Source: Candidatus Omnitrophota bacterium | GTDB taxonomy: Bacteria > Omnitrophota > Gorgyraeia > JAFGHF01 | Assembly: GCA_042571705.1 (NCBI GenBank) | Contig: JBHPFV010000007.1 | Location: forward strand, 1 to 59,097 | Length of the DNA: 59,097 bases | Direction of reading: 5' to 3' | Shown here: positions 10,301 through 44,169 of the stretch, piece by piece | Numbering within the stretch: the first letter of the stretch is position 1 | How the letters are laid out: each line of letters opens with the position of its first letter | Position numbers and translations under genes: made by a program | The notes under the pieces: generated by a model | Told to the model about the DNA's origin: nothing | The model's input: the letters and a program-made list of their open reading frames with translations, nothing else | The model's database searches: none

Positions 10301-10303
10301 CTT

Positions 10304-13985: not shown

Positions 13986-14039
13986 GGTTGTTTTACTCGT
14001 TCAAACTCCCATCATAGCCTGGAAAGCAAGCTGCTCTCT

Positions 14040-14786: not shown

Positions 14787-14883
14787 GATAATTAATTTTT
14801 TTATTAAACATACTCTGGCCCAGGAAGGAATTGGGAAAATTAACTCCAGGTTTATCGGGACAGCGTCTTGTTATTAGCGGCTG

Positions 14884-15039: not shown

Positions 15040-15075
15040 GTTGCCTCCTCCTTTTTTAGTTTCCGATCCAAATAT

Positions 15076-15498: not shown

Positions 15499-15513
15499 CT
15501 TGTCCCTCTCTTT

Positions 15514-20328: not shown

Positions 20329-20363
20329 TTAATCCTCCTCGATAATCTTTGACAGAATATCTT

Positions 20364-21098: not shown

Positions 21099-21105
21099 AT
21101 CTCAT

Positions 21106-21134
21106 AATATACCTGTGAGTTACGGATTTGTCAA
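21106..21134 (-). promoter_or_regulatory. Sigma70 promoter, probably producing a leaderless transcript
   Basis: TTGACA-17-TATATT ending 7 nt before ATG 21098; no RBS. Confidence 0.6.
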
Positions 21135-21170
21135 GTCCAATCTCACATGGTTGCTAAATCTCCGCCTCAA

Positions 21171-21218
21171 CGGAACTGGTTCCACCGGATTATTAGCATA
21201 AGCTGGGAACCTGTTCCG
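21171..21218. repeat. Intergenic imperfect hairpin
   Basis: CGGAACtGGTTCC...GGAACCtGTTCCG arms with inner TTAT/ATAA. Confidence 0.55.
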
Positions 21219-21280
21219 AGCAGCACAAAGGTGCTTTGCCAGGTTAGTCGTGCCAAAAAGGAAATACATGTTGGGCAATT

Positions 21281-21320
21281 TATCAATACTTATCAATAGC
21301 TATCAAAATATAACAGATAC
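21281..21320 (+). promoter_or_regulatory. 10-bp-periodic direct repeats (candidate HTH binding array)
   Basis: TATCAATACT TATCAATAGC TATCAAAATA TAACAGATAC. Confidence 0.55.
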
Positions 21321-21340
21321 ATAAAATATGTAAAATGAGC

Positions 21341-21369
21341 TTGCATCTAACAACTTTGTGTGATATACT
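21341..21369 (+). promoter_or_regulatory. Sigma70 promoter of the HTH/giant protein locus
   Basis: TTGCAT-17-TATACT with extended -10 TG. Confidence 0.7.
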
Positions 21370-21396
21370 CTTATCATAGTAAACGGGAATGGGCAG

Positions 21397-21633
21397 ATGG
21401 TGAAAAAAATGGGATTAGAAGAAAAACAAGCTTACCCAAAGCGTACGCAGATAATGACACTCCAGGAACTAGCTAAGTATTTAGGAGTGCATCCGATAAC
21501 CATCTATCGCCTACTTAAGGAAACAGATATCCCGGCATTTAAAATAGGAGGACAGTGGAGGTTTAAGAAAGACATCTTAGACCTCTGGCTAATGTCCAGG
21601 ATGGATAAAAGAAACAATCGCCTCCTGAAGTAA
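21397..21633 (+). CDS. Excisionase/BldC-type HTH_17 DNA-binding protein
   Basis: IMTLQELAKYLGVHPITIYRL..IPAFKIGGQWRF. Confidence 0.88.
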   Translation: MVKKMGLEEKQAYPKRTQIMTLQELAKYLGVHPITIYRLLKETDIPAFKIGGQWRFKKDILDLWLMSRMDKRNNRLLK

Positions 21634-21652
21634 TATAATTAGAAGCTAGTCT

Positions 21653-21747
21653 GTCTTTTGAAAAAGGCAAGTTCGCATCAAAAGTGCGATAACGCAAAGC
21701 TCGAGAGTCCCGATTGAAACAGGCGGGACAGTCAGCTGCCAAAAGGC
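21653..21747 (+). ncRNA. c-di-GMP-I (GEMM-I) riboswitch, variant
   Basis: P1 GUCUUUUG/CAAAAGGC; AAAGGCAA; P2 UCGCA/UGCGA; ACGCAAAGCU; P3 GUCCCG/CGGGAC; AGUCAGCUGCC; G20, A47 and C92 equivalents present. Confidence 0.8.
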
Positions 21748-21748
21748 A

Positions 21749-24700
21749 ATGAAAAAACGTAGATTAATCCATATATTTTTCTTCTTGCTCTCACTCTCCT
21801 CCCTACTACTCTATCCTTCATCAGCCATATTGCTGGCCCAAGGTAATCCTCAACCACAAAAAGAAAATTTGATCACGATTAAAAATATTGAGGGCATGGT
21901 CCAGATCAAAAAAGCCGACCAGGCCGGCTGGAGCAAGGCCGCGGCCGGGGATATCCTCTCGACCAACCACAGGATCCGCACGCTGTTAGAATCACGCGCG
22001 GAGCTGGAATACTCAGACGGCTCAATCCTGACTTTAAGAGAAAACAGCATCCTGGATATCAAAGACATCTCCTACGACAAAAAGACCGGAAAACATAAAA
22101 GAGAGATAAAATTAAATTTGGGCGGGATGAAATACAAGGTCACGCCTTTGCGCGAAAAAGGCTCGGAATTTAAAATCCACTCCTCCACTGCTATCGTCGG
22201 AGTCACCGGTACCGAAGGGATCATCGCTACTGATGGTGAGGGTAAGCCAACCAGCAATATCCTGGTCGAAGGCACGACTTACAATACTGATGAAGATGGA
22301 TCAGGCGGACGCCCGTTAAAGGCCGGCAATACCTGGCTGATCGACGAAGCCGCCGAATCCGAAAAATACATGTCCACAGACGATGAAACAGACGCAGCTG
22401 AGTATGATCAGGCCGACCCGGAGCTGGCTGCCAGGTTTAATGCCTTCCTCGCCTTATTTAACCAAAAGCAGGCCCAAGGCTACATCGTCGATGAAGCTAT
22501 CCTGGAAACACTGACCCAGGCGATGCTCAACCGGGATTACCTCAGGGCCAAACAACTGCTTGATCAAGCGGAATTAAAATTAGCCGAGGCCAAAAAACCT
22601 ACTGATCCCCAGGCCCAGGAACTCAGCCAAGCGCTGGAGCTGATCAGGACAGAGTTAGCGGCAAAAGAAACCGCAGGTTATGATTTACAGGGTATCTACC
22701 TGATCTTCTATCAAAGCGAAGAAGCTTACCGGCAAGAAAAATATGCGGCTGGATTAGATCTACTCGAACAGATTAAACTCGGATTATTAAATTTAGTTAA
22801 AGCCGAAGATGATTTTCCGCAAAGACTAAACCAATTAATGGACCGGATCAGTGAAAAAGCAAAACTAGGGTTTATGGTCGAAGAGCCGATCGAACTAGCC
22901 AAAAAATCAGATCTAGCCTATCGTAATGGAGCGCGGGCTGAGGCCGAGGCACTGCTGCTTGAAGCCCGCCAAATGCTATTTCAGGCTAGACGAATAATCC
23001 CGCCGGAGCTATTAGCGGGGCTAACTAGATTAAAGGAAGAGATCTTAACTAAGAAAGCGGATGGCTTTGATATCTTAGAAATCGAAGAGCTTTTAGCCCA
23101 AGTTGATCAATTGCTGGCTCAAGGCAAATATATCGAGGCCGGGCAAATACTACGGGGAATAGAAGCAACCTTGCCTTCGTTAACCAAGACCCTGCCTAAA
23201 GAACTGGCTTATCTATTCAAGACCTTTGAGGAAAAACTGGCTAAAAAAGAGGCCATTGGATTTGATCTGACTGAATTGCAAAATTTAATTAAGTCTGTTT
23301 ATGAAGCTAAACAAGCCGGTGACCTGGAAACAATGAATGCCTTATTAACAGAAGTCTTTACTGTATTAAAACAGCTGGGACCGCCGATTGGATTAACCAA
23401 CCGGCTTAAAGAGTTTAAAGAAAAAGTTGAAGAATTAAAGGCAGCGGGTCTCTCAGCCACAGATATTGACAATCTAGCCATGCAGATCGAGGCGGCCTTA
23501 GCAAAACAAGATCTGAACCTGGTGCGCCAATTGTTAGATCAGGCCGAAGGTCTGCTAGCCTCACTTAAAGACACGGAACCGCCAACAGTTCAGGTATCCG
23601 ATTTAGAGTACAGCGAAGATTCAGTGCAGATCTCTGGTGTAGCCAGCGATAATGTCCAGGTCGACCAAGTCACTGTCAATGGCGCGCTGGCTGTATTGGA
23701 CGATACCGGATCCTTTAATAAGGAATTATTACTCACCTCTTTGCTGGCCGAGGTAATCGTCATCGCCAAAGACGCCGAAGGCAACAGCTCGCCTGAGATA
23801 ATTATCGCTATAGCTGAAGAAAAACTAAGCGCACTCACCACAGAAGATAGCGCTGCAATTCCTGAGCTTAACGCTGATCTTAGTTACAGCGAAACCGGCG
23901 TGGTAGTTACAGGAAAAACAGATCCCGGAGCGGTAGTTACTGCCGGTGAATTAAATGTAACCGCGGATAGCGCCGGGGCCTTTTCCCTGAGCCTGAACGG
24001 ATCGCCTGAATTAGTGGAAAATGGCTTAAGCTTAATCGCTTCCGCCGCAAACGGCAATAGCTCCGCTGAACTAAAACTAGATGTGGAAGATAAATGGCTA
24101 CCGGAACTAGAAGTAACAGACGTCCAGCTATATGACAATATGCCGCCTAGCTTAACCAGTGATCCCTTAAGCTACCAAGGCGAGTTAATCGAAGTAAAAG
24201 GCAAATCTGTTGACACGGCTAATATCACCATCCTGGGAAATGTGGAAGATATCGGCTCAGGAGTAGCCAGCCTGACGATCAATGGCCAAAACGCTAGCTT
24301 AGAGGCCACAGGACAATTTAAACACACCGTATTGCTCACGGCGGAATTAAAATCGATCGCGGTAGAGCTTTTGGATAAAGCCGGGAATAAAAATATCTTT
24401 TCCCGCCCGCTGGACCTATTCCTCTACCCTGCGCTGGTGACTGTAAATGACCGTGAAATTAATGTCGATGAAAATGGAAACTTTTCCACTCAGCTCACGG
24501 CTACTGTTGAGCTAACCGAAGTTCTGATCCAGTCTAAAGATAAATTAGGAAACGAAACTACTCCGCTTAAGCTAATGGTTGTTGATAGGATTGCTCCGGA
24601 AATAAGCTTAGGCGATATCCAATACGAAATTGATTCTGTGCAGATTAGCGGTCAAACTGAACCGGACTCGCTTTTATCGGATACCAGCGGGGCTTTATTC

Positions 24701-27700
24701 CAAGATAATCTCCCTGTAGAGGCATCCGGTTTATTTACCATAACAATCCCCCGGCCAAAAAGCAATTTGACCGGGACATTGGTAGCCCAGGATGCTTCCG
24801 GAAATACCTCTGCAGGCATCGCGGTTACCATCGAGGCCTTAACAGATGAAAAACCGCCTCAACTGAGCGTAGCTAATCTGATTCTTAGAGCGGGTTTGGT
24901 AATTGTCTCGGGCGTAGTCGAAGATGATACGGGAATCGAATCTGTAACAGTCAATAACCAAGCAGTCGAGCTCACCGGCAACGCCTTTTACAAAGAACTT
25001 ACGCTTTCAGCCGATTTGGTAAAAGTAGTGGTAGTAGCCACTGATTTATCCGGTAAAACCGCGACTGTTGAGCAGGTGACCAAAGATGATCTCCCTCCTA
25101 CTCTGACCTTGGCCGACTTAAGCTATGAAGAGGGTTATTGTCTGGTTCAGGGAACGGCAACCGACAACCTGGGCTTAAAAGAAGTAAGAGTAAATAATAT
25201 ACCTATAGATATAGCCCTGCCGGCTGGAGGAGAGTTTGAATATAAGTTGGCCCTAACCGCGGGGTTAGAAAATGTGGTTGTTTCGGCTATTGATTTATAT
25301 GGTAACTATCAGGAAACCGAACCAAAAGAGATAGTCCCGCCGCTGGATCGTGTTGCTCCTATCCTCACTCTTAACGAACTAACTTATGGCAGCCCCACGG
25401 CAATTGTATCCGGAACAGTTACTGACAACATCGGACTAAGATCAGTGCTGATTAATGATCAGCCGATTGATTTTTATGAGGACGGCTCGTTTAAACTAGA
25501 GTTGGATATCACCATTGGATTACCCGAGGCCACACTAAATAACGCTATTTACGACGCTGAGTTCGTAATCATCTCCGGCACAGTAAATCTGCCCAGCCAA
25601 ACCCCTAGTCAAGTAAAAGCCATAGCCGAAGACTTAGCCGGAAATAAAAGCATGGAAATAAAAAGGGAGGTCAACGCCCTGAACCTTGAGGAATATAAAG
25701 TTACAGTTAATGGCTCAGCGGTTGATTTAGAAAATGGGGCTTTTAGAAGTGAATTAATCCTGGAACAAGGCCTGGATACTGTAGCGGTCCTGGTCTATGA
25801 TTCTCTGGGCCGCGTTTCTGAAGAGCTCAAGGTTCCTATAGAAACCACCCCTCCTATTCTTGAGGTAAATCAAGAAACTTACGCCGGAGATACCGTGACC
25901 GTGTCCGGAAAAGCCAGCGATGAGCTTTCCGGTTTAGACGAAATATTAATTAATAATACCTCTATTGATTTTTCCGGCGACGGCGCATTTTCACAAACAT
26001 TACCGATCTCCGAATCCACGGTCACTATAGTGGCCTTGGATAGAGCAGGTAACATGACCGGCTCGATACCGATAACAGTCTCGCCGCCCGATACAGCGCC
26101 GCCACTATTTGTGGTCGGACTGAATCCGGTACCGGCTACTATTGGGAATGATCTGAGCGTAACTATTGATGTCTTAGACAGCAAGACCCGGCAGCCGGAA
26201 ATGTTAGACGGTACACCTGTAGTCAACGCTGTTCTTTCTGACGGTCAAGTTAAGCCCATCGAGATCTCCGGTTCCGGCGCATCATTCTATGGCGCTCTTT
26301 CAACAACCGGCCTGCCTACAGGACTGATTACTTTAACAGTCGAAGGTAAAGATACATCCGGCAACCTGGGTAATGTAAAAGAAGGGCTGGATAATGTCTT
26401 ATTAAATACAATTGATACCAGCGCGCCCAGCTTTAGCGTCAGTCTAACTCCCGCTCCACCTGCTTTCGTAGGGGCCGAGGTTACAGTAAATGCCGCCTCC
26501 AGTGAAACCCTGAAATCCTTACCCAACGGTACGCTGACATTACCGGATGGGATCAGTTTTGAATTCGCCCTGGAAGGCGCTCTCAGCGGCACAAGCTTTA
26601 CCTCCAATTTATCCATCCCGGCTGAGACCATCCCCGGGACAGCTACGCTTAACCTGACTGAGGCGGTGGACCTGGCGGATAATGCGCAAACTTCGCCTAC
26701 TGTTTTTAGTTTTGAGATCGAGCCGGAAGAGGTTGCCGCCAGTCTTCCTTTAAGAATAGAATTCTCTGAAATCACTAATGATCGCATAGCAGTTAAAGGT
26801 CTGAGCAGCCCGCAGGCAATCATCCATATCACGCTGGGAGAAATCAAGGCCGACATCCCCGCTGATGACAATGGGTTGTTCCATTTTATAAAACCTCTCT
26901 TAAGTGAAGACTTAGAATTGATGAGGACATTAGGCGCTTCGATCTTGCTTGATTGTCATGCCACTAACTATGCCGGGCTGATCTCCGAAAAGATCAGTCT
27001 GAATATACCCTTGCCTGCCGCTATTGCGGAGACTAGAGGCGGTGAGAATTTCCTCATCGATATCTCTCCTTACCCGATCGAACAAGGACAAACTGCCCAG
27101 TTTGACATCACTTCACGCCGAGGGCTTCGGGAAGCGCCGAACGTAAGTATCAGATTGAGTAATGGCCGCACAGAGCTGGTGAATATTACCGGTTCAGGCC
27201 GACAATTCCAGGGAATCTATCAATCAACACCGGCCACAGCAATCGGCCCGGCTATTATCCAGATCAAAAGTGAGGATATTTTTGAATCCCGTCCTGGCCT
27301 GATTGTTCCTTCTTCCGAAACCTATGCGGCCATGGCCGGTTCAGGATTTTTTACAATCATCGCCAATCCGGATCCTTTGCCGATGGGAAAAGAATTGGAT
27401 GTTTCCATCACCGCGGAGCGCGCGATAAAGAAAACTCCCAGCTTAGAGATCAGACTGCCCAATGGCAGATTAGACCAGATCATTGTATCAGGAGAAGGCT
27501 CGCAGTTTAACGGAAAATATCTCTGTCCTCAAGATATCCATCCCGGACCGGCGGAGCTAATCGTAAATATGGGTCAACGCAGCGAATCCCGGCGTCCTTT
27601 TGGTATCGCTCCTCCTTATGGTAGAAGGACTCGCGAAGGTGATGTGTTCACATTTTCCAATCCCCGGCCTATGGCTACAGGCAGCTCAGCCACAGTCACT

Positions 27701-30700
27701 GTAAAATCCCGGCACCCCTTAGAAGAAATACCTGGCGCGCAGCTGCTCACCAGCGCTGGCAAGCTTATTCCTATCGAACTCAGCGGCAGCACTCCGGGTC
27801 ATCTATTCAATGCCACAATAGAAATATCCAGTGAGGTAAGTTTGGGGCCGGCGGTAATCATTATCAAAGATCAGGAAGGCAATATCCTTGATGAACATCC
27901 TACAGAAATCACTCCCGGGTTTGGCGCGGCGGATATGGAAGTAGAGGCATTGATGGTCCCTTCACCGGCTACGCCCAATCAAGTAGTAATGATCAATGTA
28001 AACTCTTTGGGTAAAGAACTTAATTTTAGGCCGCGGGGAAAACTGATTTTCTCAGACGGTTTAATCACGCCTTTGAATCTGGAAGGGCCGATACCGGCAA
28101 TGCAATTCAGGACCCCAATAACAATACCGCAAACCGCATCCTTGGGTCCGGTAAACATAATGATTCTCGATGCAGCCGGCCTGCCTATTGGCGGAGGTCA
28201 AGCTTACATCTCCAGGACTCAGCGCGGTGGCGGTTCCGGTGAGCTAAAGGTGTCAGTGATGCCTCCCAATCCTCTGCCGGGTGACCCCTTAGAGGTTTCC
28301 ATATCTTCAGATGCCAGCTTGCAATCTATCAGATGCGCTTTAGAAGTACCTGGGAAAGGGCCTCAGGATATTCGCTTAGAGGGTCCGATACCCGGAAATA
28401 GATTTAGAGCGAATATCTCGTTCCCTCGCGATGCCCAACCTCGAGGTTCAAGAATAGACGTGTTCTTTGATCGCGGGGCCGGCGAAGAAACACAAAGCTT
28501 CTTCCTCGAAGGCCGACATCACGAAGGAGGAGGTCACCGGCCGCCTGAACTAAACCCCTTCCCTCCTATGCCCGGAAAGCCCCTGGTGATCACTCTACAT
28601 GCGCCTTTCATAATGGACTTCGCGCCCAGCGTCAGAGTAAATTACATAACCGGCAATGAGTCATTAGCTACTAACGGCCCGATACCCGGAGACAGATTTA
28701 CCGGAACTTTACCTAATGTAGCCATGGCGGTAACATCGATCGATGTCTTAGGTCCCGGAGGTGAATTGTTAGTCAATCTACCTATTGAAATGCTGGGCGG
28801 CAGGCATGATGCGCCGCATATACAAATTATGCCCTTACCTTTAATGCCTGGCTCCCCGGCAAACCTGAGGCTGGAATTCCCTAGGCAGGTTTACAGTCTG
28901 CCAACAGCAAGCATAAAATTAGAAACCGGCCGGATGGTCCCGATAACTTTAACCGGTCCGATCCCCGGCAGCATGTTTACGGGCATGTTCAGCATTCCCC
29001 ACGATACTTCGTTCGGTCCGGCAAACTTAGAAGTTTATATCGATAACCAGCTTGTGCCCGGCGGCACCATGCCGGTCAATATCGGAGACAGCGGCCCTGT
29101 TAGCGGTGATCTTTTGGCCTTAATGATCTTCCCGGGAGCGCCGGGAGAATTAAATATAGATTGGCACCTCTTGCCTAGGGCAGAAAGACATAAAATAGAA
29201 TGTCAGGCCCCGGGATTACCTAAAAAGACATTTGACGCCGGCAGGAGGAGTCATTATTTTGTAACAGGCTTGGAGGCCGACAGCGAATATAAAGTAACAG
29301 TCATCGCCTTTGACAGCAGGCGTAGAGAAATTACCCGTTCAGAGTATTATATCCGAACCATCAGCTCAGCCTATGGCGGCCAGGGTTTTCCCCTTTATGT
29401 TCACCCTTCCGGACCGGGAAACCTGCAAATAAACTGGGACCATCAACCAGGCGTGCTAAGTTATAATCTCTTCTACGTCCAGGGAGCTAATGACCCATTA
29501 ACTCAAACACCGCACCCGGCAGGTAATGCCACAAGTTATCATTTATATGAGTTGGCTGCCGGGCAATATCAAATTCAGGTAGAAGCAATGCTCTCAACAG
29601 GCGAGACAATGCTCAGTGAAATCAGAACAGAATATGTCAGCAGTGATTTTGATTATGGCCGGCCTCCTGTAGAGCTACATCCCTATCCGCCTATAACCGG
29701 ACAACCTTTAGATATTGATGTGCTGCTTCCGATGACAATTCCTGTTCTGCCCAGTGTAAAAGCCCAATACGCCACTGCCGGTGAAGACGCCTTTACCATG
29801 TCCGGGCCCCTGCCGGGCTCTAGCTTCCACGGGACCCTGGCCTCAGTAAAAGATACGATTACCGCGATAAATTTCTATGACCCGATCAGCGGCGGAATGA
29901 AACATTCCCATCCGATTGGCGGGGATTTGTATTATGATATTACACCATATGACCTCTGGGTCAGAATCAGCGTAGATCCTGAGCCAGCTGTAGGCACTGA
30001 GACAAGTATTAATCTTGATTTCAACCAAGAAGTTGATTTTCAACACGCGGGGTTAAGACTGCTGGTAGGTTTTGTGGGTGGCCGAGAAATTGAGATACCT
30101 GTATCTAGTTCCGGCCCGCAAATGAGCTATCAGGCTATGCTAAGCGCGACCCAGCATAGCGAAACCATAGAAACGATCGGCATAGAAGGTTCCCGAGGCA
30201 TGGTCCCTGAAGAATATATCAACACCCAGGCCAGCGGTGGAATTACCGCCACGCTCTCGATCACGCCTGATCCGCCAATAATGGGTACAAATACACAAAT
30301 TCAAGTCAGTATAGCTGACGCTGGCACGTATCAACCGCGCAATATAGATTCGCTTCCTGCGGTCGGCGTAGATCTTGCTAGCGGCACGATGTGGGAATTA
30401 ACTGCCAATGGATCATTGCCGGGTTCTGAGTTTTCCGCTGAACTAACTCAAGCTATGTTCACTGCCCCTATTGAGTTAATTGACGTAGAGTATAATGGCG
30501 TGCTTATTGCCAGCAAGACTTTTGTTGTCGAAGGTGGCCCGGTTACATTTGGCCCGATGTTCTATCCCGATCCTCCGCAAACCGGACAGCCGTTAAACTT
30601 GAATCTGGATATTCCTCCCGATGAACCACCCATGTCTGGATTCCCTGAGGTCAAGATTAATTACGCCTCAGGCACAACTCCAGCAAGTGAATATATGGAA

Positions 30701-35620: not shown

Positions 35621-35630
35621 AACCTCCCCC

Positions 35631-35659
35631 TTGTAATTATCCACAAATTGTGATAAAAT
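35631..35659 (+). promoter_or_regulatory. Internal sigma70 promoter with a DnaA box in its spacer
   Basis: TTGTAA-17-TAAAAT with extended TG; TTATCCACA at 35637-35645. Confidence 0.5.
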
Positions 35660-35740
35660 TCTTCTAACTATAGTTTTTATATTTAGTTAGGAGGGGACCA
35701 GATTTCTCTATCCAAATTTTTTTGCGATAAGAGACAGGGG

Positions 35741-38323
35741 ATGTTTTTAATCTTTTTCGCTCTCTTTGTCATCTTACTTAATTGCCTACTTTTTGCCGCA
35801 GAAGAAGATAGCGAGCTATTCCAACAAGGGGTCCAGGCCTATCAAGAAAAGGATTTTGACCCGGCAATAGAGATCTTCGAAAAGCTATCCCAGAAAATCT
35901 TTGGACATGAGCCCAGTTTCTACAACTTGGGGCTAGCCTATGTGCAAAAGACCAAATACCCTCAGGCCATTGAGGCCTTTGAGCAAGCTAGCCTGTATAA
36001 TCCCTATAACCTGTTCAGCTATAAATTCCTGGCCGACCTTTTTATCCTGACTAAAAAATATGAAGACGCCCTAACTAAAATTAAAGATGTGCTCAAGCGC
36101 AATCCTCAAGACAGCGATGCCCACTTAAAAAACGGTTTTTTGGCTCTTAAGAAAAACGACCTGGATGCAGCGACAAAAGAATTTACCTTTGTCAGAAACC
36201 TCGATCCTGATGACCTGGCCAGCCGAATCAATCTAGCCGGATTATTCCTGCAAAGCAAAAATTTCGACAAAGCCAAAAGCTATCTATCTGAAATCGAAAA
36301 CAAGACCCTAGGCGATGCCAAAACCAATGCCTTTCGCTGGGCATTAGTCAGTTATCTGTATAGAGTGGAAAAGCAAACCCAAAAGGCTGAAAACACCCGA
36401 AAAACCGCAGTTGCCCTGGCGCCGGCATGGAGAAGAATAAAGGATCCGAACTTTGCGGTTGCCCCGTTACAGCTTGAGTTTACTCATCACCTGCTTCATC
36501 AGCGTTCACTCTCCACGCTCGGTGAGGCTAATCTCCTGGAGTTTCAGCAAAGCGAGGCCTCGAAACGAGTGGTGGAGCGGATACAAACAGAAAAAGCGGA
36601 AGAAAAGAAAAAGGCTACCGTAGCGGTAGCCAAGAAAAAAGATACTCAAGGCCCGTTTGATTTAACCGGAGAATGGGAACACACGGTTGAATACTATGAC
36701 CGCAACCCGATTACCTCTAATCCAATCAATGACGTGAACATGACCAGCAACCTGGAATTAGACGCCAAATTTAAGAATGGCCTGAAGTTTTCCTCGGAAT
36801 TCGAAGCCTACCTTAACCGCTGGGACCATGTCCAGTTAGATTTCTTCAAGATCAACTTAAAGAAAGATAACGATGAGCTGGATATAGGTAAATTCTCGGC
36901 TAAAAATTTCCCCAGCGCGCTTACTCACCCTACCTTAGAGCAGGGCATTCGCTGGTGGCATCGTTTCGAACGTAATGTCCAAACACAATTATTTGACCAA
37001 TTGCCGCAAGACTTAGAGGCATTCGACCAAGACCAATCAGATTTAAAGCAGATTCCTAATGTCAGTCAACTCTATGGCCTAGCCGAACGCGCCCGTGAGT
37101 TCTTCGCTACCTGGGAGGTAACGGTATTGCATGGCCGGTCTAAAAAACCAAAAAATTTAGACGCCCGTAAAGAAAAGAATGAGAACACTTATGAAACCAG
37201 CGGCCAATTTGAGCAGTGGGTCAGCGCCTTTCATATTATGGCCGAGCCCTCAGATAACACTGAGATAGGATTTTCTTATTCCCGAGTCAAAGACGATAAT
37301 ACCGAGGCCTCGGTCAGCGCAACTACCCTGGCCATAGAAAGCGAGGCCTATGGAGTAGATTGGTCAGCGGAATTTTTGGACGGCAAACTAAAAACCGATG
37401 GCGAGCATGTCCGGGCAAATTATGATGAGAATATCGCATTGGACGACGGTATAAAAAATAAATCTGACCTGATCACAACCGTGGGCGTAGATTATGAACT
37501 GACTGACAATTGGGATTTATCCTACGACCTAAAGCGGGTTGGGGCAAATTACGAAGTTGAAGGCGGCTACCAGACGCCGGATAAGCTGACCCAGACCTGG
37601 ACCGGTAAATATGCTGCACCCCAAACTAAACCCTGGACGGTCAGATCAATAAACCTCAAAGTCGAACCGGCCCGGGTCAATCTCTCAAAAAGCAATGAGA
37701 CTAGCAAGGACTATCTGACCTTTCAGCCCAAGATATCCTTTACCCTGCCTCAGGACGCCAAGCTCTCTTTTGATTATAAATTCTACCATGAGCAACAGTC
37801 CTGCGTCTGTACCGAATATAAGACCCGGACCTTAAAAACAGAGTTGGAATATGAACACGAAGCCTCTAAAACTACCTTCAAACCCAGCTTTACCTTTGAG
37901 CGTAAAGATGACCGCGTGGCCGCGCCGACAGATGAAAAAAAGAGGGACTTTACCTTAAGTGTTGAGAATAAATTTGTAGATAACCTGACCTTGAAGGCCT
38001 CCGCGGAAAGAGAGAGAAAAGGTTATGTGGGCGCGACTACAAAGTCTTATAATCAACATAAGTATTCCTTTGAGGCAAAGTATGTCTTCGTCCCCGGCCG
38101 CTGTGATAGCAGCCTGAAGGTGTCTATCGACGATAAGGACCAAACTGACACTAATGATATCGAAATAGACACGCTGAAATTTACATTTAATTATACCTCT
38201 GAAGACAAAAATGATAAGCTGACTATAGAGTATGAACGAAAATCAAATATCTACGATCCCTGGTCGGATACATCGGCTTACCGGCAAAATTACGCCAAGA
38301 TGAAATTCACAAATAAATTTTAG
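35741..38323 (+). CDS. TPR-repeat plus C-terminal outer-membrane beta-barrel protein
   Basis: Signal peptide, ~5-6 TPRs (YNLGLAY..AIEAFE), then ~550 aa of amphipathic beta-strands ending KMKFTNKF. Confidence 0.75.
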   Translation: MFLIFFALFVILLNCLLFAAEEDSELFQQGVQAYQEKDFDPAIEIFEKLSQKIFGHEPSFYNLGLAYVQKTKYPQAIEAFEQASLYNPYNLFSYKFLADLFILTKKYEDALTKIKDVLKRNPQDSDAHLKNGFLALKKNDLDAATKEFTFVRNLDPDDLASRINLAGLFLQSKNFDKAKSYLSEIENKTLGDAKTNAFRWALVSYLYRVEKQTQKAENTRKTAVALAPAWRRIKDPNFAVAPLQLEFTHHLLHQRSLSTLGEANLLEFQQSEASKRVVERIQTEKAEEKKKATVAVAKKKDTQGPFDLTGEWEHTVEYYDRNPITSNPINDVNMTSNLELDAKFKNGLKFSSEFEAYLNRWDHVQLDFFKINLKKDNDELDIGKFSAKNFPSALTHPTLEQGIRWWHRFERNVQTQLFDQLPQDLEAFDQDQSDLKQIPNVSQLYGLAERAREFFATWEVTVLHGRSKKPKNLDARKEKNENTYETSGQFEQWVSAFHIMAEPSDNTEIGFSYSRVKDDNTEASVSATTLAIESEAYGVDWSAEFLDGKLKTDGEHVRANYDENIALDDGIKNKSDLITTVGVDYELTDNWDLSYDLKRVGANYEVEGGYQTPDKLTQTWTGKYAAPQTKPWTVRSINLKVEPARVNLSKSNETSKDYLTFQPKISFTLPQDAKLSFDYKFYHEQQSCVCTEYKTRTLKTELEYEHEASKTTFKPSFTFERKDDRVAAPTDEKKRDFTLSVENKFVDNLTLKASAERERKGYVGATTKSYNQHKYSFEAKYVFVPGRCDSSLKVSIDDKDQTDTNDIEIDTLKFTFNYTSEDKNDKLTIEYERKSNIYDPWSDTSAYRQNYAKMKFTNKF

Positions 38324-38332
38324 GGGGAACCA

Positions 38333-39454
38333 ATGAGGTGCCTATATATCAGTATAACCCTTTGCCTGATACTCTCTGGCTGTGCCATGGGGCCAACACC
38401 GATAAAAAAATTCGTCTCCCCTGCTGCGGCTCTTTATGATCAGGCCGGCGTACATTTTGAACAGCAAGATTATGATGCGGCCATCGCTAAATACGAAGAA
38501 TTCATCGCCGCCCACCCCAGACACAACCTAATTCCCGGGGCCCATTTGGGAGTGGCCTGGTCATATTATCTAAAGGGGAATTACGAAGAATCTCTAGCGG
38601 CGCAGAAAAAGGTCAGGACAAAAGATCAGACCTTAAAGGCCTGGCTGGATCAACTGGCCGGTAATTGTAAAACTAAACTGGCCAGCGCCCCAGCTGCGGC
38701 CAGCGCTCCCAGACTGTTCGATATCCCCATATTTACTAACCAAAAGATTCTCAAGATCGAGGGCACAGTGCCGCCAGAGAGTTCAATCTCCATCAATGCC
38801 ATCGAAGCAGCTGTTCAAGACGGATTATTCGCTCAAGATATCTCTCTGGAAGTAGGAGAAAATCTAATCAAAATCGAGATCATTGATAAAGATGGTAATA
38901 TCGAAACCAAAGAATCTAAAGTGACACTGGATATAACCGTACCGGAGCTGGAAGTAACTGACGCCGAATTGGACGATCATGGTTATGTGACTATCTCGGG
39001 ACTGAGCGAGCCTCACGCAACTGTTACGGCCAATAACGAAGAATTCCTGGTCTCATCTGTTGGTAAATTTACAGGGGAAGTAAAACTGCCTCATAACCTA
39101 AAAATCGAACTGAGCGCTGAAGACCGCGCCGGTAATATTGCCAAGCTGACTTTCGCTGACGCCGAGCAGCCTGAGGAGCCCACGGGTCTGGTGATCAGAT
39201 CTATATATGGAACCAGCGTGGATCTGGAGTGGGATCAGAATCCAGAACAAGACATCAAAGGCTATAATATCTATTATTCTCAAGTCGGCGGGTGGTCAGA
39301 TCAACAATATAACCCGGAGTTAATTGAGGAGACCACCCAGACCATGACCGGTTTAGAATCAGGCAATACCTACACCATCTATCTGCGGGCAGTAGATAAA
39401 ATGGGCAATCAAGGCGAACCTTCAGAGGTGACCGTCAACGCCGTGATCCCATAA
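38333..39454 (+). CDS. Lipoprotein with BamD-like TPR, two Ig-like domains and Fn3
   Basis: Lipobox LSGC; TPR YDAAIAKYEEFIAAHP; EDRAGN; Fn3 LEWDQNPEQDIKGYNIYY..AVDKMGNQG. Confidence 0.8.
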   Translation: MRCLYISITLCLILSGCAMGPTPIKKFVSPAAALYDQAGVHFEQQDYDAAIAKYEEFIAAHPRHNLIPGAHLGVAWSYYLKGNYEESLAAQKKVRTKDQTLKAWLDQLAGNCKTKLASAPAAASAPRLFDIPIFTNQKILKIEGTVPPESSISINAIEAAVQDGLFAQDISLEVGENLIKIEIIDKDGNIETKESKVTLDITVPELEVTDAELDDHGYVTISGLSEPHATVTANNEEFLVSSVGKFTGEVKLPHNLKIELSAEDRAGNIAKLTFADAEQPEEPTGLVIRSIYGTSVDLEWDQNPEQDIKGYNIYYSQVGGWSDQQYNPELIEETTQTMTGLESGNTYTIYLRAVDKMGNQGEPSEVTVNAVIP

Positions 39455-39474
39455 TCTTAAAAAAGGAAGCTTAA

Positions 39475-42081
39475 ATGGGACAAACAACAAAAAAGAAGTG
39501 TCTAGTCAGTATATCTATCGCCGTCCTGACCGCATCAATAATCACCATGATTGCTCTTCTGCTTCCCAATTTCTACAATTCATTCGAGTCAAAAACCATT
39601 GATTTAAGATTCCAGCTGCGTGGACCAATCCCACAAAGAGAAGATATCTTATTCGTGGAAATGGATGAACGAGCCGTTGAAGATCTGGGCCGCTGGCCCT
39701 GGCCGCGGGATATGTTCGCTCATATTATCGATACGCTTAACGCCTTAAAGGCAAAGACAATTCTCTTTGATGTCACCTTTGCTGAACCTACACAACTTAT
39801 CGTTGATAGAGAAAAATTAAGCGCTGGTTTAAGGCTCAAAGAAAATAAAAAAATTATCCAGAATTTCATTGCCGCTACAGATGAAGCATTTACTCAAGGT
39901 ACAGTTACTCCGGCTGAGGCCAAGGATTCCCTAAACCAAATTAATCAAGGCATTGAATTGTGGGCAACAGAAATACAAAACACATTTTATGAAACCATCA
40001 AAGACAATGATCTGATCTTAGCCGAAGCAATTAAAAAAGCTCAAAATGTATATCTTGGTTATCAACTGGAAGTAATCCATACCCCTAAAGACATAATTAG
40101 AAATGATGCCTACCTGGAATTGAAAAAACAACTTATTGGCTGGGCCGGAAAAAATCCCCATGGAAGTTTTAAACAGCTGCCTTCTTCTTTAAAAAATACT
40201 CCATTTAGCCCTAAAGAAATGGGCCTTTTTTTGAAAAGGGCTCAGATCCAGGCTTTATTAGATAAAAACCTGGAACTAAACTTAGAAGATGTCGCTGGCG
40301 CGCTAGGAGAAAGCAACCCCAGTAATCTACGCACCAACTACAATGATGTTAAAAGTTCGCTATTCAGAGAGCGATTAGAAGAATTGGCTCAACATAAACC
40401 GGAAATCTCTTTTAGGGAATTGGTCTGGGCTTTAGGGTTATTTAAAAATTCGGATATAGAACTACTCAAAGAAGAATATCAATCCTATATACTTGAACAT
40501 TTCTTTTCAGAAAAAATAGGTATAGATTATTTCGGCGAAGAAAATCTTTTGCCGGCGATAAAGATCTCACCTCCCATACTCCCCCTGGCCAAAGCAGTAA
40601 AGGGCGCAGGATTCCTAAATGCCATACCGGATCAGGACGGCACAATAAGAAAGATCCCTCTTGTGGTGCGTTACAAAGATAAAATCTATGCCCATATCGC
40701 GCTCAGAACTGTCCTTGATCAGCAGGGCATCGACTCTCAGTCACAGCTGAAAATTACTCCGCAGTTTTTAGAGCTCCCGGGAAGGCGCATTCCCATTGAC
40801 GAGAATGGATTTCTTTTTGTAAACTGGGCGGATAAATGGCAGGATTCTTTTGCCCATCTCTCTTGTAGCGAAGTGTACAGACTTTGGCAGTTAAAAAGAA
40901 ATGTAGCGCAAAATTTAAAATTATCCAAGGAAGAATTAGAAGCGGCAAACCTAACCGAGACATTGGCTGAGGATACAAATAAACTCAAAGAAGCCGATCA
41001 GAAACTAGGGCGCCTGGTCAAAGATAAGATCTGTATCATCGGCCTGACTGCCCCGGGGACACACGACTACTCCCCGATCCCCTTACAGCCGGATTATCCA
41101 GCGGTCGGCACCCATGCCAATGTGCTCAATACTATACTAGAAAACAACTATCTTTATAAAGCAGGCTTACCGATTAACTTGACAACAATATTCATCTTAG
41201 CCATAATCACCGGTATCTCCGTAGCCTTACTTTCTCCAATGTATAGTTTTATCTTTAATTTCTTGATCTTCAGTATCTACTCGCTTTTGTGTATCTTTCT
41301 GTTTAAAGAAAGAGGCCTTTGGATAGATATGGTCGGTCCTTTGGGCACAGTGATCTTAAGCTATCTGGGAATTGTCAGCTACAACTTCACCTCTGAAGAA
41401 AAAGAAAAGAAATGGATCAGAAAGGCCTTTGGACATTATGTCTCTAAGAATGTCATGGAGGAGATCCTTAAAGACCCGGCCAAGTTAAAATTGGGCGGAG
41501 AAAGAAAGGAGCTCAGCGTCCTTTTTTCGGATATCCGCAGTTTTACCACTTATTCTGAAAACCACCAGCCCGAAGAAGTAGTCGGTATCTTAAACGAATA
41601 TTTAGATACGATGACCAAGGTAATCTTAAAACACAACGGTACTCTGGATAAATACGTCGGTGATGAGATCGTGGCTGTTTTTGGCGCCCCGTCGGCCAGC
41701 GTAGAAACCGACCACGCTCAGCGGGCGGTAGCAGCCGCGGTGGATATGCTTAAAGAATTAAAACAGCTGCAGGAAAAATGGCACAGCGAAGGCAAACAGC
41801 CGCTCGATATCGGGATCGGCATCAACACCGGACCAATGCTGGTAGGAAACATCGGTTCCACCGAAAGAATGGATTATACTGTTATTGGTGACGCGGTCAA
41901 TTTAGGCTCCAGGATCGAGGGCTTGACCCGAGAATATAAGAACCATCTGATTATCAGCGAATTTACCTATGCCTACGTCAAGGATATGGTCGAGGCCAAA
42001 CAGCTCGAAGCGGTCAAGGTAAAAGGTAAACAAAAACCAGTGATGATCTATGAGGTGTTAAACCTAAAAGAAAGAGGCTAA
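39475..42081 (+). CDS. CHASE2-domain class III adenylate cyclase
   Basis: GRWPWPR, D.DGTIRK, GTHANVLNTIL, 3 TMs, LFSDIRSFT, DKYVGDE (Lys), DYTVIGDAVNLGSRIE (Asp), consistent with ATP specificity. Confidence 0.93.
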   Translation: MGQTTKKKCLVSISIAVLTASIITMIALLLPNFYNSFESKTIDLRFQLRGPIPQREDILFVEMDERAVEDLGRWPWPRDMFAHIIDTLNALKAKTILFDVTFAEPTQLIVDREKLSAGLRLKENKKIIQNFIAATDEAFTQGTVTPAEAKDSLNQINQGIELWATEIQNTFYETIKDNDLILAEAIKKAQNVYLGYQLEVIHTPKDIIRNDAYLELKKQLIGWAGKNPHGSFKQLPSSLKNTPFSPKEMGLFLKRAQIQALLDKNLELNLEDVAGALGESNPSNLRTNYNDVKSSLFRERLEELAQHKPEISFRELVWALGLFKNSDIELLKEEYQSYILEHFFSEKIGIDYFGEENLLPAIKISPPILPLAKAVKGAGFLNAIPDQDGTIRKIPLVVRYKDKIYAHIALRTVLDQQGIDSQSQLKITPQFLELPGRRIPIDENGFLFVNWADKWQDSFAHLSCSEVYRLWQLKRNVAQNLKLSKEELEAANLTETLAEDTNKLKEADQKLGRLVKDKICIIGLTAPGTHDYSPIPLQPDYPAVGTHANVLNTILENNYLYKAGLPINLTTIFILAIITGISVALLSPMYSFIFNFLIFSIYSLLCIFLFKERGLWIDMVGPLGTVILSYLGIVSYNFTSEEKEKKWIRKAFGHYVSKNVMEEILKDPAKLKLGGERKELSVLFSDIRSFTTYSENHQPEEVVGILNEYLDTMTKVILKHNGTLDKYVGDEIVAVFGAPSASVETDHAQRAVAAAVDMLKELKQLQEKWHSEGKQPLDIGIGINTGPMLVGNIGSTERMDYTVIGDAVNLGSRIEGLTREYKNHLIISEFTYAYVKDMVEAKQLEAVKVKGKQKPVMIYEVLNLKERG

Positions 42082-42083
42082 AA

Positions 42084-42617
42084 ATGCTTAAGGCTAAAAC
42101 GCTAATTTGGTTGTTTGTAATCTTATTCAATGTCAGCGCCGCGCCATCAGGCCTGGCCGAGGAACAGGTTTGTGGAGAGAAAACTTACATAGAAGTTAAC
42201 GACGATAACTATAAGTCTGAAGTGCTTGAATCTACTCAAGCCCTGATTGTCTTCTTTTATGCTGCTTGGTGTCCTTACTCAGACTCATTGCTTCCGATCT
42301 ATAAGCAAATAGAAAATAGCTATTCTAGGCAAGTGAAATTCTGCCGTTTTTTATTAGGCGATGAATACAAAGATTTTTCCAGTCCGGAAGGTAAAGCGCT
42401 TTGGGCGAGACTTAAGGAAAATTACGGCGTCAACATGCTCCCGACATTGGCCATGTTTAACGAAGGAAAAGAATTGGATAGGATGCGCGGCCGGCCGGAA
42501 AAAGAATTGGTCAGCGGTTACGCTGAGTTCTTAAAAAAATGGATCGATTCCAACCTGATCGACCCTCAAGAAAATCCCTACCTTTTTGAAAGCACTTTGA
42601 TGCTTCGCAAAAAATAG
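42084..42617 (+). CDS. Exported thioredoxin-fold protein with a CxxS site
   Basis: Signal peptide; FYAAWCPYS; YGVNMLPT cis-Pro. Confidence 0.8.
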   Translation: MLKAKTLIWLFVILFNVSAAPSGLAEEQVCGEKTYIEVNDDNYKSEVLESTQALIVFFYAAWCPYSDSLLPIYKQIENSYSRQVKFCRFLLGDEYKDFSSPEGKALWARLKENYGVNMLPTLAMFNEGKELDRMRGRPEKELVSGYAEFLKKWIDSNLIDPQENPYLFESTLMLRKK

Positions 42618-42625
42618 CAAAGCGA

Positions 42626-43942
42626 CTAATTAAACTGCAAGTTTATGGTTTCTTGGTCTACTTCCCCGTGAGGATCACTAACGGTAATCGTCAGGGCCTC
42701 AGCAGTAGAATTGGAGATTGTGAATTGGCCTTGGCCATTAGCCATCTGAGCGCCTGGCGAGGATAGAGTAAAGCTATTATCAGCCACTGCCTCATTAACA
42801 TCGAGATCAAACTGGGCGTTGACAAATTGCGCTATCCTGCCTGAGGTACAGCGGGTTGTAATTGTAACAGTAACAGAAGTATTCACGCCGGCTGGATTGT
42901 TGGTTGCAGATAGCTCAATGCTCAAGGGCACATAAGGCACTGAGTAATCCGGGCTCCTGGTATCGCGCTCGATCTCGTTGCCGGCTAAATCCTTTAAGTC
43001 TCTGACCTCCACATACATCTCGGTATAAGAACGCAACAGATCATCTAGCTCCAAGATTACTCTATCGCCATGAAACTCGACACTCCGGGGGGTTTGCTGA
43101 TCACCAGAGAACACTTCGTAATTGCTGGTGTCGGTGGCCGCCCCATCATCGAGCTCCTCGCTAAAGGTCATTTCCACAAAGGCCAGCGTCTCCATCTTGA
43201 TATCTATGATCTGAGGAGGTTCTTGATCAGGGATACTAAACGTGATGCTGGCCTCTATTGGCTTAAAAGCCCCTTGAGGATCGATTAGCTGCAGCAGAAG
43301 CTCTTCTTCCTCCTCAGAATTTGTAATCGAAAAACTTGCCTCACCCTCCGATATATCTAACTTTTGAGGATTCAAGGTAAAACTCTTATCTGACAGGCCC
43401 AATTCCTCAACCGTGATGTTTAAGCCCCGCTGGTTATAATCAATAGCTAGATTGCCCTCTTTATCCAAGACCAGGACAGTAGCTTTCTGTGGTTCATTGA
43501 CATTGCCCCGGGAAACCAAATCTATTTCCAAATGATCGGGAACAGATTTTTCTTTGAAGGTTATCCTGGCCGGAAACGGACTTTTATTCTTTCCTGAAAC
43601 AATGCTCAATTCCAGCGTTTCCAGCTCGGAATCTTCGATAAAGAAAAAGGCCCTACCCTTTTTAAACTCTAACTCCTCAGGCAAACTGTTAAAGCTCTTA
43701 GCCCGCTTGCCCCCAATTTCTTTGACACCAATGCTGACTTTTTTCAAACCCTCAAAACTTTCATCAATTAAACCATAGGAATCCAGGGAAAAGACAGCCA
43801 CCTCTTTGGGGCTGTTACGAATTCCGGCCTGATCCAATTTTATAAAAAACTGGGTTGCCTGCCCTGGGAGCTGTTCCTCGGCAAAGGAGGGATTAAACAC
43901 ACCAAGAATGATCCCCGCGGAGAAAAGAAAAATTTTCCACAT
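42626..43942 (-). CDS. Secreted Ig-like (SbsA-like) protein, paralogous to the giant protein C-terminus
   Basis: Signal peptide MWKIFLF..SFA; DQEPPQI..MTFSEELD..SNY..DLAGN; start at ATG 43942. Confidence 0.72.
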   Translation of the reverse strand: MWKIFLFSAGIILGVFNPSFAEEQLPGQATQFFIKLDQAGIRNSPKEVAVFSLDSYGLIDESFEGLKKVSIGVKEIGGKRAKSFNSLPEELEFKKGRAFFFIEDSELETLELSIVSGKNKSPFPARITFKEKSVPDHLEIDLVSRGNVNEPQKATVLVLDKEGNLAIDYNQRGLNITVEELGLSDKSFTLNPQKLDISEGEASFSITNSEEEEELLLQLIDPQGAFKPIEASITFSIPDQEPPQIIDIKMETLAFVEMTFSEELDDGAATDTSNYEVFSGDQQTPRSVEFHGDRVILELDDLLRSYTEMYVEVRDLKDLAGNEIERDTRSPDYSVPYVPLSIELSATNNPAGVNTSVTVTITTRCTSGRIAQFVNAQFDLDVNEAVADNSFTLSSPGAQMANGQGQFTISNSTAEALTITVSDPHGEVDQETINLQFN

Positions 43943-43947
43943 TTTAA

Positions 43948-44169
43948 TTAGACGTTCCACCATAACCAACCCCTATTTTTTAAAGAACATGCTCCGTTGA
44001 TCTTGCCCTCTAAGCGCAGACTGTTTAATGTCCGGCTGGTAGAATCCGGGCACTGCAGATCCTTGGCCAAGGCCTCTAACTCGACCTGACGGGTAGAGAG
44101 CCGCCCCTTGCTCTTCAATAAATCTATGATGAAATCCTCTGCTTCTTTTTTAGACAGGATGCGCAACAT
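43948..44169 (-). CDS. Small hypothetical winged-helix-like protein
   Basis: LSTRQVE..CPD..TLNSLRLEGKI..GWLWW; tightly packed in the operon. Confidence 0.55.
   Translation of the reverse strand: MLRILSKKEAEDFIIDLLKSKGRLSTRQVELEALAKDLQCPDSTSRTLNSLRLEGKINGACSLKNRGWLWWNV

Follow-up and report, generated by a model that had tools for sequence, protein, structure and literature searches.

A conserved Omnitrophota locus for a giant FecR protein, a predicted outer-membrane barrel and a CHASE2 adenylate cyclase

CHASE2 is an extracytoplasmic sensor domain. On what activates it, the one case studied, that of NsrA and CyaK in Sinorhizobium meliloti, shows only that an outer-membrane protein is needed. 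Both proteins are required there for signal perception, and residues 600–1200 of NsrA are described as its beta-barrel portion in the available part of the report (PMC7529298). In Campylobacterota, a gene cluster for a CHASE2 adenylate cyclase, a cyclic adenosine monophosphate (cAMP) phosphodiesterase, a FecR-domain protein of the outer membrane and also a TPR protein has been proposed to constitute one pathway (PMC9239204, available part), and the ‘BiofilmReg’ operon of Burkholderia encodes a response regulator, a periplasmic LysM-FecR protein and a CHASE2 histidine kinase (PMC5192318, available part). The subject here is a locus from a Candidatus Omnitrophota bacterium, which encodes a giant exported FecR protein with Ig-like and Fn3 repeats (4623 residues), a TPR protein with a modelled C-terminal barrel (860 residues), a lipoprotein and a CHASE2 cyclase (868 residues). 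It lies on a stretch of 59,097 nucleotides (GenBank JBHPFV010000007.1, assembly GCA_042571705.1), called the window below, which is contig C7 of genome G000, a 1.88-Mb assembly of 73 contigs and 89.1% completeness.

Omnitrophota are known for giant proteins, which are very long, exported or membrane-bound and encoded in small genomes, and a role in cell–cell contact has been proposed for them (PMC10066038; bioRxiv 10.1101/2023.11.21.568195; bioRxiv 10.64898/2026.06.07.730766). As far as the main texts of these papers are available, supplements aside, FecR, CHASE2, riboswitch, adenylate cyclase and c-di-GMP receive 0 mentions in them. The window system is genuine and conserved, and it represents a FecR/barrel/CHASE2 variant that has not been described so far. 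It can be read, with a probability of roughly 0.55, as one conserved envelope-spanning FecR/outer-membrane-barrel/CHASE2 signalling unit, which would follow the logic of NsrA–CyaK in a split and greatly extended form.

A preliminary description, made from the letters of the window, had listed a co-oriented run of seven features, consisting of a helix-turn-helix (HTH) gene, a riboswitch of the c-di-GMP-I class (c-di-GMP, cyclic di-guanosine monophosphate) and the genes of the giant protein, the barrel protein, the lipoprotein, the cyclase and an exported CxxS thioredoxin. All seven are present, each at its own coordinates on the + strand (Table 1). The last four genes are as closely packed as had been stated, with gaps of 9 bp between barrel and lipoprotein, 20 bp between lipoprotein and cyclase and 2 bp between cyclase and thioredoxin; further upstream, 115 bp separate the HTH gene from the giant gene and 120 bp separate the latter from the barrel gene.

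The arrangement of these genes is more than chance and recurs across Omnitrophota lineages. A search of one genome per species returned nine related loci, eight labelled Omnitrophota and one on a 3-kb contig labelled Lysobacterales, and whole-genome searches supplied further pieces of system loci. The system is thereby found in ten genomes (that of the window, G401, G402, G403, G404, G405, G239, G379 and the genomes of loci L011 and L012), with L013 as a further short fragment. The order barrel–lipoprotein–cyclase is kept in all nine loci long enough to display it (window, L005–L009, L011, L012 and L030), L010 and L013 ending too early to be counted, and the lipoprotein gene lies 3' of the barrel gene in 10 of the 10 loci extending past the barrel. 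The giant FecR gene adjoins the barrel gene in each of the eight loci with upstream sequence, pointing the same way in four of them (window, L006, L010, L030) and divergently in the other four (L008, L009, L011, L012); in G401 and G403 the contig stops at the barrel and the giant gene was found on a separate one. FecR and the TPR and barrel parts are on separate chains in all 10 system genomes. The protein identity among the recurring sets is 35–45%, with order and orientation rearranged. Since the synteny is kept even where the giant and barrel genes are inverted with respect to each other, the genes form one conserved unit; what had been proposed from a single contig is thus found again in nine other Omnitrophota genomes and in the fragment L013.

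Some of the loci carry additional genes. In L008 (G379), a gene for a 2012-residue PPDK_N protein (pyruvate phosphate dikinase ATP-binding domain; 3766–9804, - strand) lies between the giant and barrel genes. Genes for a PilT-like protein and a cNMP_binding-GAF protein are inserted between lipoprotein and cyclase in L006 (G402; 13733–15783, - strand), and L030 (G239; 8636–12270) has at the same place an MshEN-T2SSE ATPase gene together with genes for a GAF kinase and a receiver. Such inserts of type IV pilus or type II secretion system ATPases in two separate lineages hint at a link of the system to pili. The contig L013 (3,075 bp), from the metagenome-assembled genome labelled Lysobacterales, holds an Omnitrophota-type barrel gene and the start of a lipoprotein gene. 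Its barrel is about 40% identical to that of the window, a level comparable to that of the distant Omnitrophota loci L008–L012. Its placement in Lysobacterales looks like a binning error.

By its catalytic motifs, the 868-residue CHASE2 protein appears to carry an ATP-specific class III adenylate cyclase domain. The closest solved relative of this domain is the adenylate cyclase CyaB (PDB code 3r5g, E 7.5e-46), in which the segments FSDIRSFT, DKYVGDE and MDYTVIGDAVNLGSR of the window protein find the same motifs. The aligned motifs presumably hold the two metal-binding Asp residues, the substrate Lys and Asp, and the transition-state Asn and Arg of class III cyclases. The specificity for ATP had been read earlier from DKYVGD and from the MDYTVIG motif, which is present as given; both motifs and the best alignment, that with a solved adenylate cyclase, bear this assignment out. 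The CHASE2 match is stretched by an insertion over residues 24–578 and is flanked by transmembrane helices at about 8–34 and 560–612, as seen from hydrophobic windows. The cyclases of system-bearing genomes align with the window cyclase over its full length. CHASE2 matches elsewhere are shorter, covering residues 25–306 in the S. meliloti cyclase, 11–308 in a CHASE2-SpoIIE protein and 19–372 in the protein of locus L059, and the cyclases of L059, L060, L061 and L063 are without roughly residues 105–256 or more.

One class III cyclase was found in genome G000. A second CHASE2 protein of this genome, a 618-residue CHASE2-SpoIIE phosphatase, is encoded outside the window on contig C32 (21,028 bp), with a c-di-GMP-I riboswitch (65.1 bits) and a gene for a 233-residue exported protein coming after its gene. 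This contig is a perfect palindrome with the same genes running outward on both arms, which is probably an artefact of assembly or amplification.

The FecR region of the giant protein (residues 31–215) was co-folded with the periplasmic CHASE2 region of the cyclase (residues 35–556), with a purpose-built alignment for each partner. The pair scored 0.36 (0.31–0.41 between runs), the best of three controls scored 0.00, the runs shared at least 91% of their contacts and the partner predicted local distance difference test values (pLDDT) were at least 73.

The giant protein has a mass of 495 kDa and an isoelectric point of 4.3. It begins with a signal-peptide-like N-terminus, followed directly by the FecR domain at residues 75–175 (Pfam, E 7.3e-11), which is the only FecR domain in genome G000. 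The other Pfam matches are Big_6, four Glucodextran_B stretches and fn3, and about 4000 residues consist of several classes of diverged Ig-like/Fn3 repeats of about 85–100 residues. A model of residues 31–670 (mean pLDDT 75) places six three-helix bundles (about 224–605, pLDDT 75–93) between FecR and the first Ig-like domain. Foldseek found nothing in the PDB that matches this model at E ≤ 0.001, and the helical rod is therefore given no family name. Eight homologues of the giant protein, 3796–5142 residues long, all have FecR at the start, and five of them, in Omnitrophota, are named ‘FecR domain-containing protein’ by NCBI. The protein does not have the layout of an inverse autotransporter of the intimin/invasin type, as no barrel domain was found in it by Pfam, by repeat analysis or in the N-terminal model. 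Nor does it fit the FecR anti-sigma factor type, no sigma-70 family or TonB-receptor match being present in the Pfam scans of 16 window proteins. The system-bearing genome G379 also contains an open frame of 44,966 residues with a GGDEF match (contig C73, around 100129–100674).

The 860-residue protein has TPR matches at residues 37–229 or so (Pfam 37–218, NCBIfam to 229), while its C-terminal 560 residues match no Pfam family and the chain ends in KF. The AlphaFold2 model (mean pLDDT 81.6, 16 homologues) predicts TPR helices at about 25–260, a linker helix and a beta-barrel of about 26 strands at residues 309–859, with Phe as the final residue. This Phe is conserved in 10 of 10 orthologues, nine of which end in K-F and one, that of L030, in D-F. 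In the MtrCAB porin–cytochrome complex of Shewanella, MtrB forms a sheath of 26 strands through which a partner protein runs. Of the 48,161 chains compared with VIA-align, MtrB (6r2q_B) was the top match of the barrel with Z 21.9, a root-mean-square deviation of 4.4 Å, 461 aligned residues and 11% identity, followed among barrels by a SusC-like protein (Z 19.0), FyuA (18.7) and FimD (17.3). MtrB was likewise the top barrel match in Foldseek, with FimD/PapC among the matches. The protein thus models as a TPR domain followed by a large barrel of about 26 strands, in agreement with the barrel that had been proposed at the outset.

No MtrB-type Pfam family matches the barrel, and no cytochrome genes were noticed in the general scans of window proteins, which were not aimed at them. 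The protein is not of the Slam type, as TPR_Slam reaches 19.3 bits against a Pfam cut-off of 35.2 and SlipAM gives no match. A CxC motif in a barrel turn (C688 and C690; window positions 37802–37810) is invariant or nearly so across orthologues. The possibility that the CxxS thioredoxin acts on these two cysteines was dropped, as the membrane side of the turn is not readable from the model.

The c-di-GMP-I riboswitch is genuine, being above the gathering score and at the same position in three relatives (G402, 55.6 bits; G405, 72.7 bits; G239, 50.2 bits); its aptamer is the only Rfam match in the window. No riboswitch was found between the HTH and giant genes of G401, G403 and G404, where the gap is only about 55–85 nt, or before the giant gene of G379, L011 and L012. 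The end of the aptamer is 5 nt 5' of the giant-gene ATG in both the window and G402; a hairpin and a U-tract come after the aptamer in G405 and G239. The 5' arm of the G405 terminator (CCAUAGCU) is the exact complement of eight bases (AGCUAUGG) in the 3' part of the aptamer. This layout suggests that the riboswitch is most likely an OFF switch, in which the ligand-bound aptamer would lead to termination or to an occluded start.

For the riboswitches of some relatives, the GGC variant model RF03167 scores better than RF01051. A c-di-GMP-I-GGC riboswitch is present directly 5' of a response-regulator gene beside the cluster in L012 (13817–13894, - strand; 60 bits, gathering score 59) and, as a weak copy of 30.2 bits, in L011 (12896–13057, - strand), and G239 has another riboswitch 5' of an FHA-GAF kinase gene. 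Genome G000 has nine GGDEF matches and 11 c-di-GMP-I matches, of which eight are over the cut-off, two of these eight being on the palindromic contig. In 7 of 10 genomes an HTH orthologue is encoded 5' of the giant gene; that of L009 carries an HTH_17 domain. A promoter upstream of the HTH gene, read by eye as TTGCAT-17-TATACT, is not in the promoter-scan list and is hence not claimed. A query for sequencing runs over window positions 20300–26300 listed none, which does not show that there are none.

Three conserved partners on the opposite strand, a DUF3307 membrane protein, a GAF histidine kinase and a DUF6901 protein, had been missed in the preliminary description. DUF3307 is found near the cluster in 7 of 10 system genomes, in varying positions: L011 and L012 have it between lipoprotein and cyclase, G379 after the giant gene, G401 and G403 before the HTH gene, and G239 about 2.3 kb from the HTH gene. 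It is single-copy in the window genome and in all five further genomes searched, and occurs in 65 of the 401 sampled Omnitrophota genomes, 224 of which have FecR. Seven further Omnitrophota loci were chosen solely for the presence of DUF3307 and FecR within 10 kb. A CHASE2 cyclase stands beside DUF3307 in six of them; the contig of the seventh stops too soon to show one. Three of these loci have an adjacent GAF protein (GAF-SpoIIE in L059, a GAF histidine kinase in L062 and a GAF protein in L064). The outer-membrane or TPR proteins next to FecR belong to other families (SlipAM-like in L059, ShlB/POTRA in L060, TPR in L062), and in L060, L061 and L063 CHASE2 is paired with small FecR proteins of 262–292 residues that have no adhesin part.

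The GAF kinase of the window has, as read from its sequence, no hydrophobic stretch. An orthologue with 42% identity is encoded directly 5' of the cyclase in G239, and the cyclase-linked GAF domains are 41–58% identical to that of the window, as compared with 33% for the best paralogue in G000. As CHASE2 cyclases in other parts of the phylum also have DUF3307 and a GAF of this orthologous type beside them, the conserved soluble GAF kinase is likely to be the cAMP receptor and is a candidate for this role. The full NKFDE-type cyclic-nucleotide motif is not recognisable by eye in its GAF domain. From the recurrence in the chosen loci and the orthology of the GAF domains, the conserved core is assigned, on sequence grounds, as a FecR protein, a CHASE2 cyclase, DUF3307 and a particular GAF effector, with an outer-membrane partner of varying family. 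A double-receiver protein with a weak cREC_REC match (45494–46258, - strand), encoded 2.9 kb past the operon, is a possible partner of this kinase, but the proximity of its orthologues to the cluster is not consistent.

DUF6901 was seen near the cyclase in three cases only (window, L011, L012), and in L011 and L012 a tandem DUF6901 gene lies directly 3' of the cyclase. The Atlas returned for DUF6901 only DUF6901 clusters, with structural rows under a TM value of 0.5 and no function. In the literature as far as it was available to the search, DUF6901, PF11750 and PF21842 have no mention and DUF3307 is mentioned once, in a phage paper; no earlier link of DUF3307, of this GAF type or of DUF6901 to CHASE2 cyclases was found in the searchable literature.

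Taken as a signalling unit, the system might work as follows. The FecR head and the helical rod of the giant protein would remain in the periplasm, where the head would contact the cyclase at its CHASE2 domain, which is periplasmic. The chain may then cross the outer membrane inside the MtrB-like barrel, with help from the TPR regions of barrel protein and lipoprotein, and its Ig/Fn3 modules, some 4000 residues, would form a surface fibre. Binding to this fibre or pulling on it would alter the FecR–CHASE2 contact and change cAMP synthesis, with the soluble GAF histidine kinase as the putative reader of cAMP and DUF3307 as a possible membrane partner of the cyclase. In the window lineage, high c-di-GMP would most likely block fibre production through the riboswitch at the start codon.

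Several observations weigh against this reading. Of 80 solved complexes, 58 passed the mark set for the co-fold, as did 2 of 110 mismatched pairs, and scores of 0.60 or less comprise 7 of those 80 solved complexes together with both passing mismatches, so the FecR–CHASE2 score is weak by the tool's own calibration. The interface that had been proposed is therefore predicted above its controls and is weak by this calibration; given the recurrent adjacency of the two genes, the co-fold may be called mildly favourable, no more. In the N-terminal model of the giant protein, pLDDT is 27–55 over half of the FecR region. Pfam gives the giant protein no recognised outer-membrane export or anchoring signal. 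Its threading through the barrel is suggested by the likeness of the barrel to MtrB and by the gene order, and its location in the cell is likewise inferred. The barrel family is rare, being present in 3 of the 401 sampled Omnitrophota genomes, the window's own included, and a profile search of 1.84 billion representatives returned 42 proteins at E ≤ 0.001. Ten of these remote relatives were scanned with Pfam, which gave only TPR in two, SlpA_C in one and nothing in seven, and a FecR fusion in none of the ten.

Only 4 of 10 genomes (window, G402, G405 and G239) have the riboswitch in front of the giant gene, so that the gating of the fibre by c-di-GMP, as put forward in the preliminary description, has the riboswitch directly before the giant gene in its favour but is not constant. 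Genome G000 has 18 GAF matches, and the choice of the window GAF as cAMP receptor thus depends on neighbourhood and orthology. No cNMP_binding domain was found in the 89.1% of this genome that is covered, and two other system-bearing genomes have 7 and 5 such matches. Also, no sequence similarity was detected between the barrel and the NsrA family (barrel-only hhalign alignment, probability 0.03, E 0.95); any homology would have to be too remote for sequence methods. A sequence link between the two barrels was accordingly rejected, BLASTP having matched the TPR part only; the NsrA parallel is architectural, and shared barrel ancestry is not claimed.

The same parts could instead form an adhesin display machine under control from the inside, in which the TPR barrel and lipoprotein are a dedicated anchor or translocon, the FecR head and rod a plug for periplasmic retention, and the cyclase, GAF kinase and riboswitch set the time of making or keeping the adhesin. 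This would resemble the LapA/LapE retention system, which is under c-di-GMP control. Its anatomy is identical to that of the signalling unit, the riboswitch acts on the giant gene itself, and the PilT-like (L006) and MshEN-T2SSE (G239) inserts fit surface-behaviour regulons. A cyclase with an extracytoplasmic sensor domain is less expected of such a machine, as is the need of S. meliloti CyaK for NsrA in signal perception (PMC7529298, available part). The pairing of CHASE2 with small adhesin-free FecR proteins, which recurs in three of the chosen loci, further indicates that FecR is more than a plug. Display without sensing is rather unlikely, and the display and sensing readings are compatible with each other.

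It is improbable that the giant protein never passes the outer membrane and serves as a scaffold in the periplasm or cell envelope, with the barrel as a solute channel or assembly factor and FecR–CHASE2 sensing a periplasmic condition. The lack of an export signal beyond the Sec-type N-terminus and the presence of an exported CxxS thioredoxin and a lipoprotein at the locus would suit such a scaffold, but about 4000 residues of Ig/Fn3 modules with so low an isoelectric point are a typical make-up for surface fibres, an MtrB-like barrel of 26 strands is much wider than a solute channel requires, and in 8 of 8 loci the barrel gene remains next to that of the giant protein. Least probable by far is that the genes are mere neighbours with no common function and that the short gaps reflect only a compact genome. 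The genome is small, at 1.88 Mb, and FecR is common in the phylum, yet the same set recurs at low identity with rearranged order and orientation, and FecR, the class III cyclase and DUF3307 are each single-copy in the genome.

If the system does signal, it would include the first giant protein of Omnitrophota with a plausible signalling output, in a phylum where such proteins are suspected to act in cell contact, and would offer an example of c-di-GMP and cAMP in cross-talk. Should the GAF protein be a cAMP receptor, the pathway would lead from the surface of the cell to either a two-component kinase or a PP2C phosphatase. With NsrA-like parts on individual genes, the FecR–CHASE2, FecR–TPR and barrel–fibre contacts can each be tested. 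A wider proposal, put forward here only tentatively, is that the barrel, FecR protein, CHASE2 cyclase, DUF3307 and GAF effector make up a general, undescribed five-part trans-envelope cAMP pathway that extends from rhizobia to Omnitrophota. The FecR receptor of the window would then be a cell-sized antenna for contact or force, with about 40 Ig/Fn3 modules threaded through an MtrB-like sheath, by which the touch of host or prey might be passed to cAMP, while c-di-GMP would decide whether the antenna is built.

Table 1. Coordinates of the locus and its neighbours in the window
Feature	Position	Strand	Basis
DUF6901 protein, 241 residues, cytoplasmic, CxxCxxC...C motif; last gene of divergent operon	18314..19039	-	Pfam DUF6901 E 4.4e-82
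Soluble GAF-HisKA-HATPase histidine kinase, 430 residues; candidate cAMP receptor	19036..20328	-	Pfam
DUF3307 polytopic membrane protein, 244 residues	20364..21098	-	Pfam DUF3307 E 2.3e-14
Excisionase-family / HTH_17 DNA-binding protein, 78 residues	21397..21633	+	NCBIfam excise domain E 4.8e-14
c-di-GMP-I riboswitch aptamer	21656..21743	+	RF01051, 42.8 bits vs gathering 35, E 4.6e-5
Giant exported FecR + Ig/Fn3 protein, 4623 residues	21749..35620	+	Pfam, N-terminal model, repeat analysis
Predicted outer-membrane TPR + barrel protein, 860 residues	35741..38323	+	TPR matches, AlphaFold2 model
Lipoprotein, 373 residues: BamD-like TPR, Glucodextran_B-type Ig, Fn3	38333..39454	+	Pfam, NCBIfam; LSGC lipobox
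CHASE2 class III adenylate cyclase (by motifs), 868 residues	39475..42081	+	CHASE2 E 3.1e-44; Guanylate_cyc E 4.4e-26
Exported thioredoxin-fold protein, 177 residues, WCPYS (CxxS), hydrophobic N-terminus	42084..42617	+	
Exported Big_5 Ig-like protein, 447 residues, convergent with thioredoxin gene; accessory neighbour	42626..43969	-	Pfam Big_5 E 1.1e-5

The limits originally drawn for the run are to be corrected. Its start had been set at 21281, which is intergenic DNA 116 nt 5' of the ATG of the HTH gene and not the start of a gene, although the run itself is there. The end given, 43942, is wrong, as it lies inside the minus-strand Big_5 gene, and the co-oriented run stops with the thioredoxin gene at 42617. 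The thioredoxin, also counted as a part of the system, is indeed in the window operon but is otherwise found only in the closest relatives L005, L006 and L007, that is in 4 of the 9 genomes with a visible post-cyclase region. Orthologues of the Big_5 protein, 63–68% identical, are at the same place in L005–L007, and a weak one is present in L009. Elsewhere in the window, an EF-G-like GTPase of 920 residues (11223–13985, + strand) has its GTP_EFTU domain from residue 230 on, behind an N-terminal extension of about 230 residues.

Among described systems, the Burkholderia BiofilmReg operon shares with the window a periplasmic FecR-domain protein encoded next to a CHASE2 sensor, as far as the available part of its report goes. 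It differs in that its output is a CHASE2-fused histidine kinase and that its FecR protein is small and peptidoglycan-binding, with no barrel. The Campylobacterota cluster, again from the part of its description that is available, resembles the window locus in bringing together a CHASE2 cyclase, a FecR protein and a TPR protein. Unlike it, the window has no phosphodiesterase gene among the genes scanned, and that part of the account mentions no giant fibre, riboswitch, DUF3307 or GAF kinase (PMC9239204).

The FecA-FecR-FecI system is similar in that a FecR domain couples an outer-membrane barrel protein to an inner-membrane signalling protein. However, the giant protein has no cytoplasmic anti-sigma part, the predicted output at the window locus is cAMP, and none of the 16 scanned window proteins is an extracytoplasmic function sigma factor or a TonB-dependent transducer. 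With MtrCAB (PDB code 6r2q), the window barrel shares a likeness of fold only, at the low identity given above.

The closest parallel is that with NsrA–CyaK. On S. meliloti pSymB, an open reading frame that ends where the CHASE2 cyclase gene begins codes for FecR at residues 85–179, TPR at 436–560 and a long C-terminal region. The record is unannotated, and from the position, the length and the published residue numbers we infer that this frame is NsrA, its neighbour being the CyaK-like cyclase. The NsrA-type family of about 1200 residues is widespread in Rhizobiaceae, under the labels ‘FecR domain-containing protein’ or ‘TonB-dependent receptor’. The layout of the window had been thought to have no described relative; this holds for the split form with a giant fibre, but the S. 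meliloti frame with FecR, TPR and C-terminal region is a relative of it.

In both systems a CHASE2 class III cyclase adjoins the gene or genes for an N-terminal FecR domain, TPR and an outer-membrane barrel, and FecR follows directly after the signal peptide, residues 75–175 of the window protein being collinear with 85–179 of the rhizobial one. The rhizobial proteins are often labelled TonB-dependent receptors, whereas the window barrel is closest to MtrB. While rhizobia have one chain of about 1200 residues, the window has FecR on a chain of 4623 residues, TPR and barrel on one of 860 residues and a lipoprotein in addition. As the S. meliloti frame carries FecR, TPR and the C-terminal region in a single chain, the window locus corresponds to a split and expanded module of the NsrA–CyaK type.

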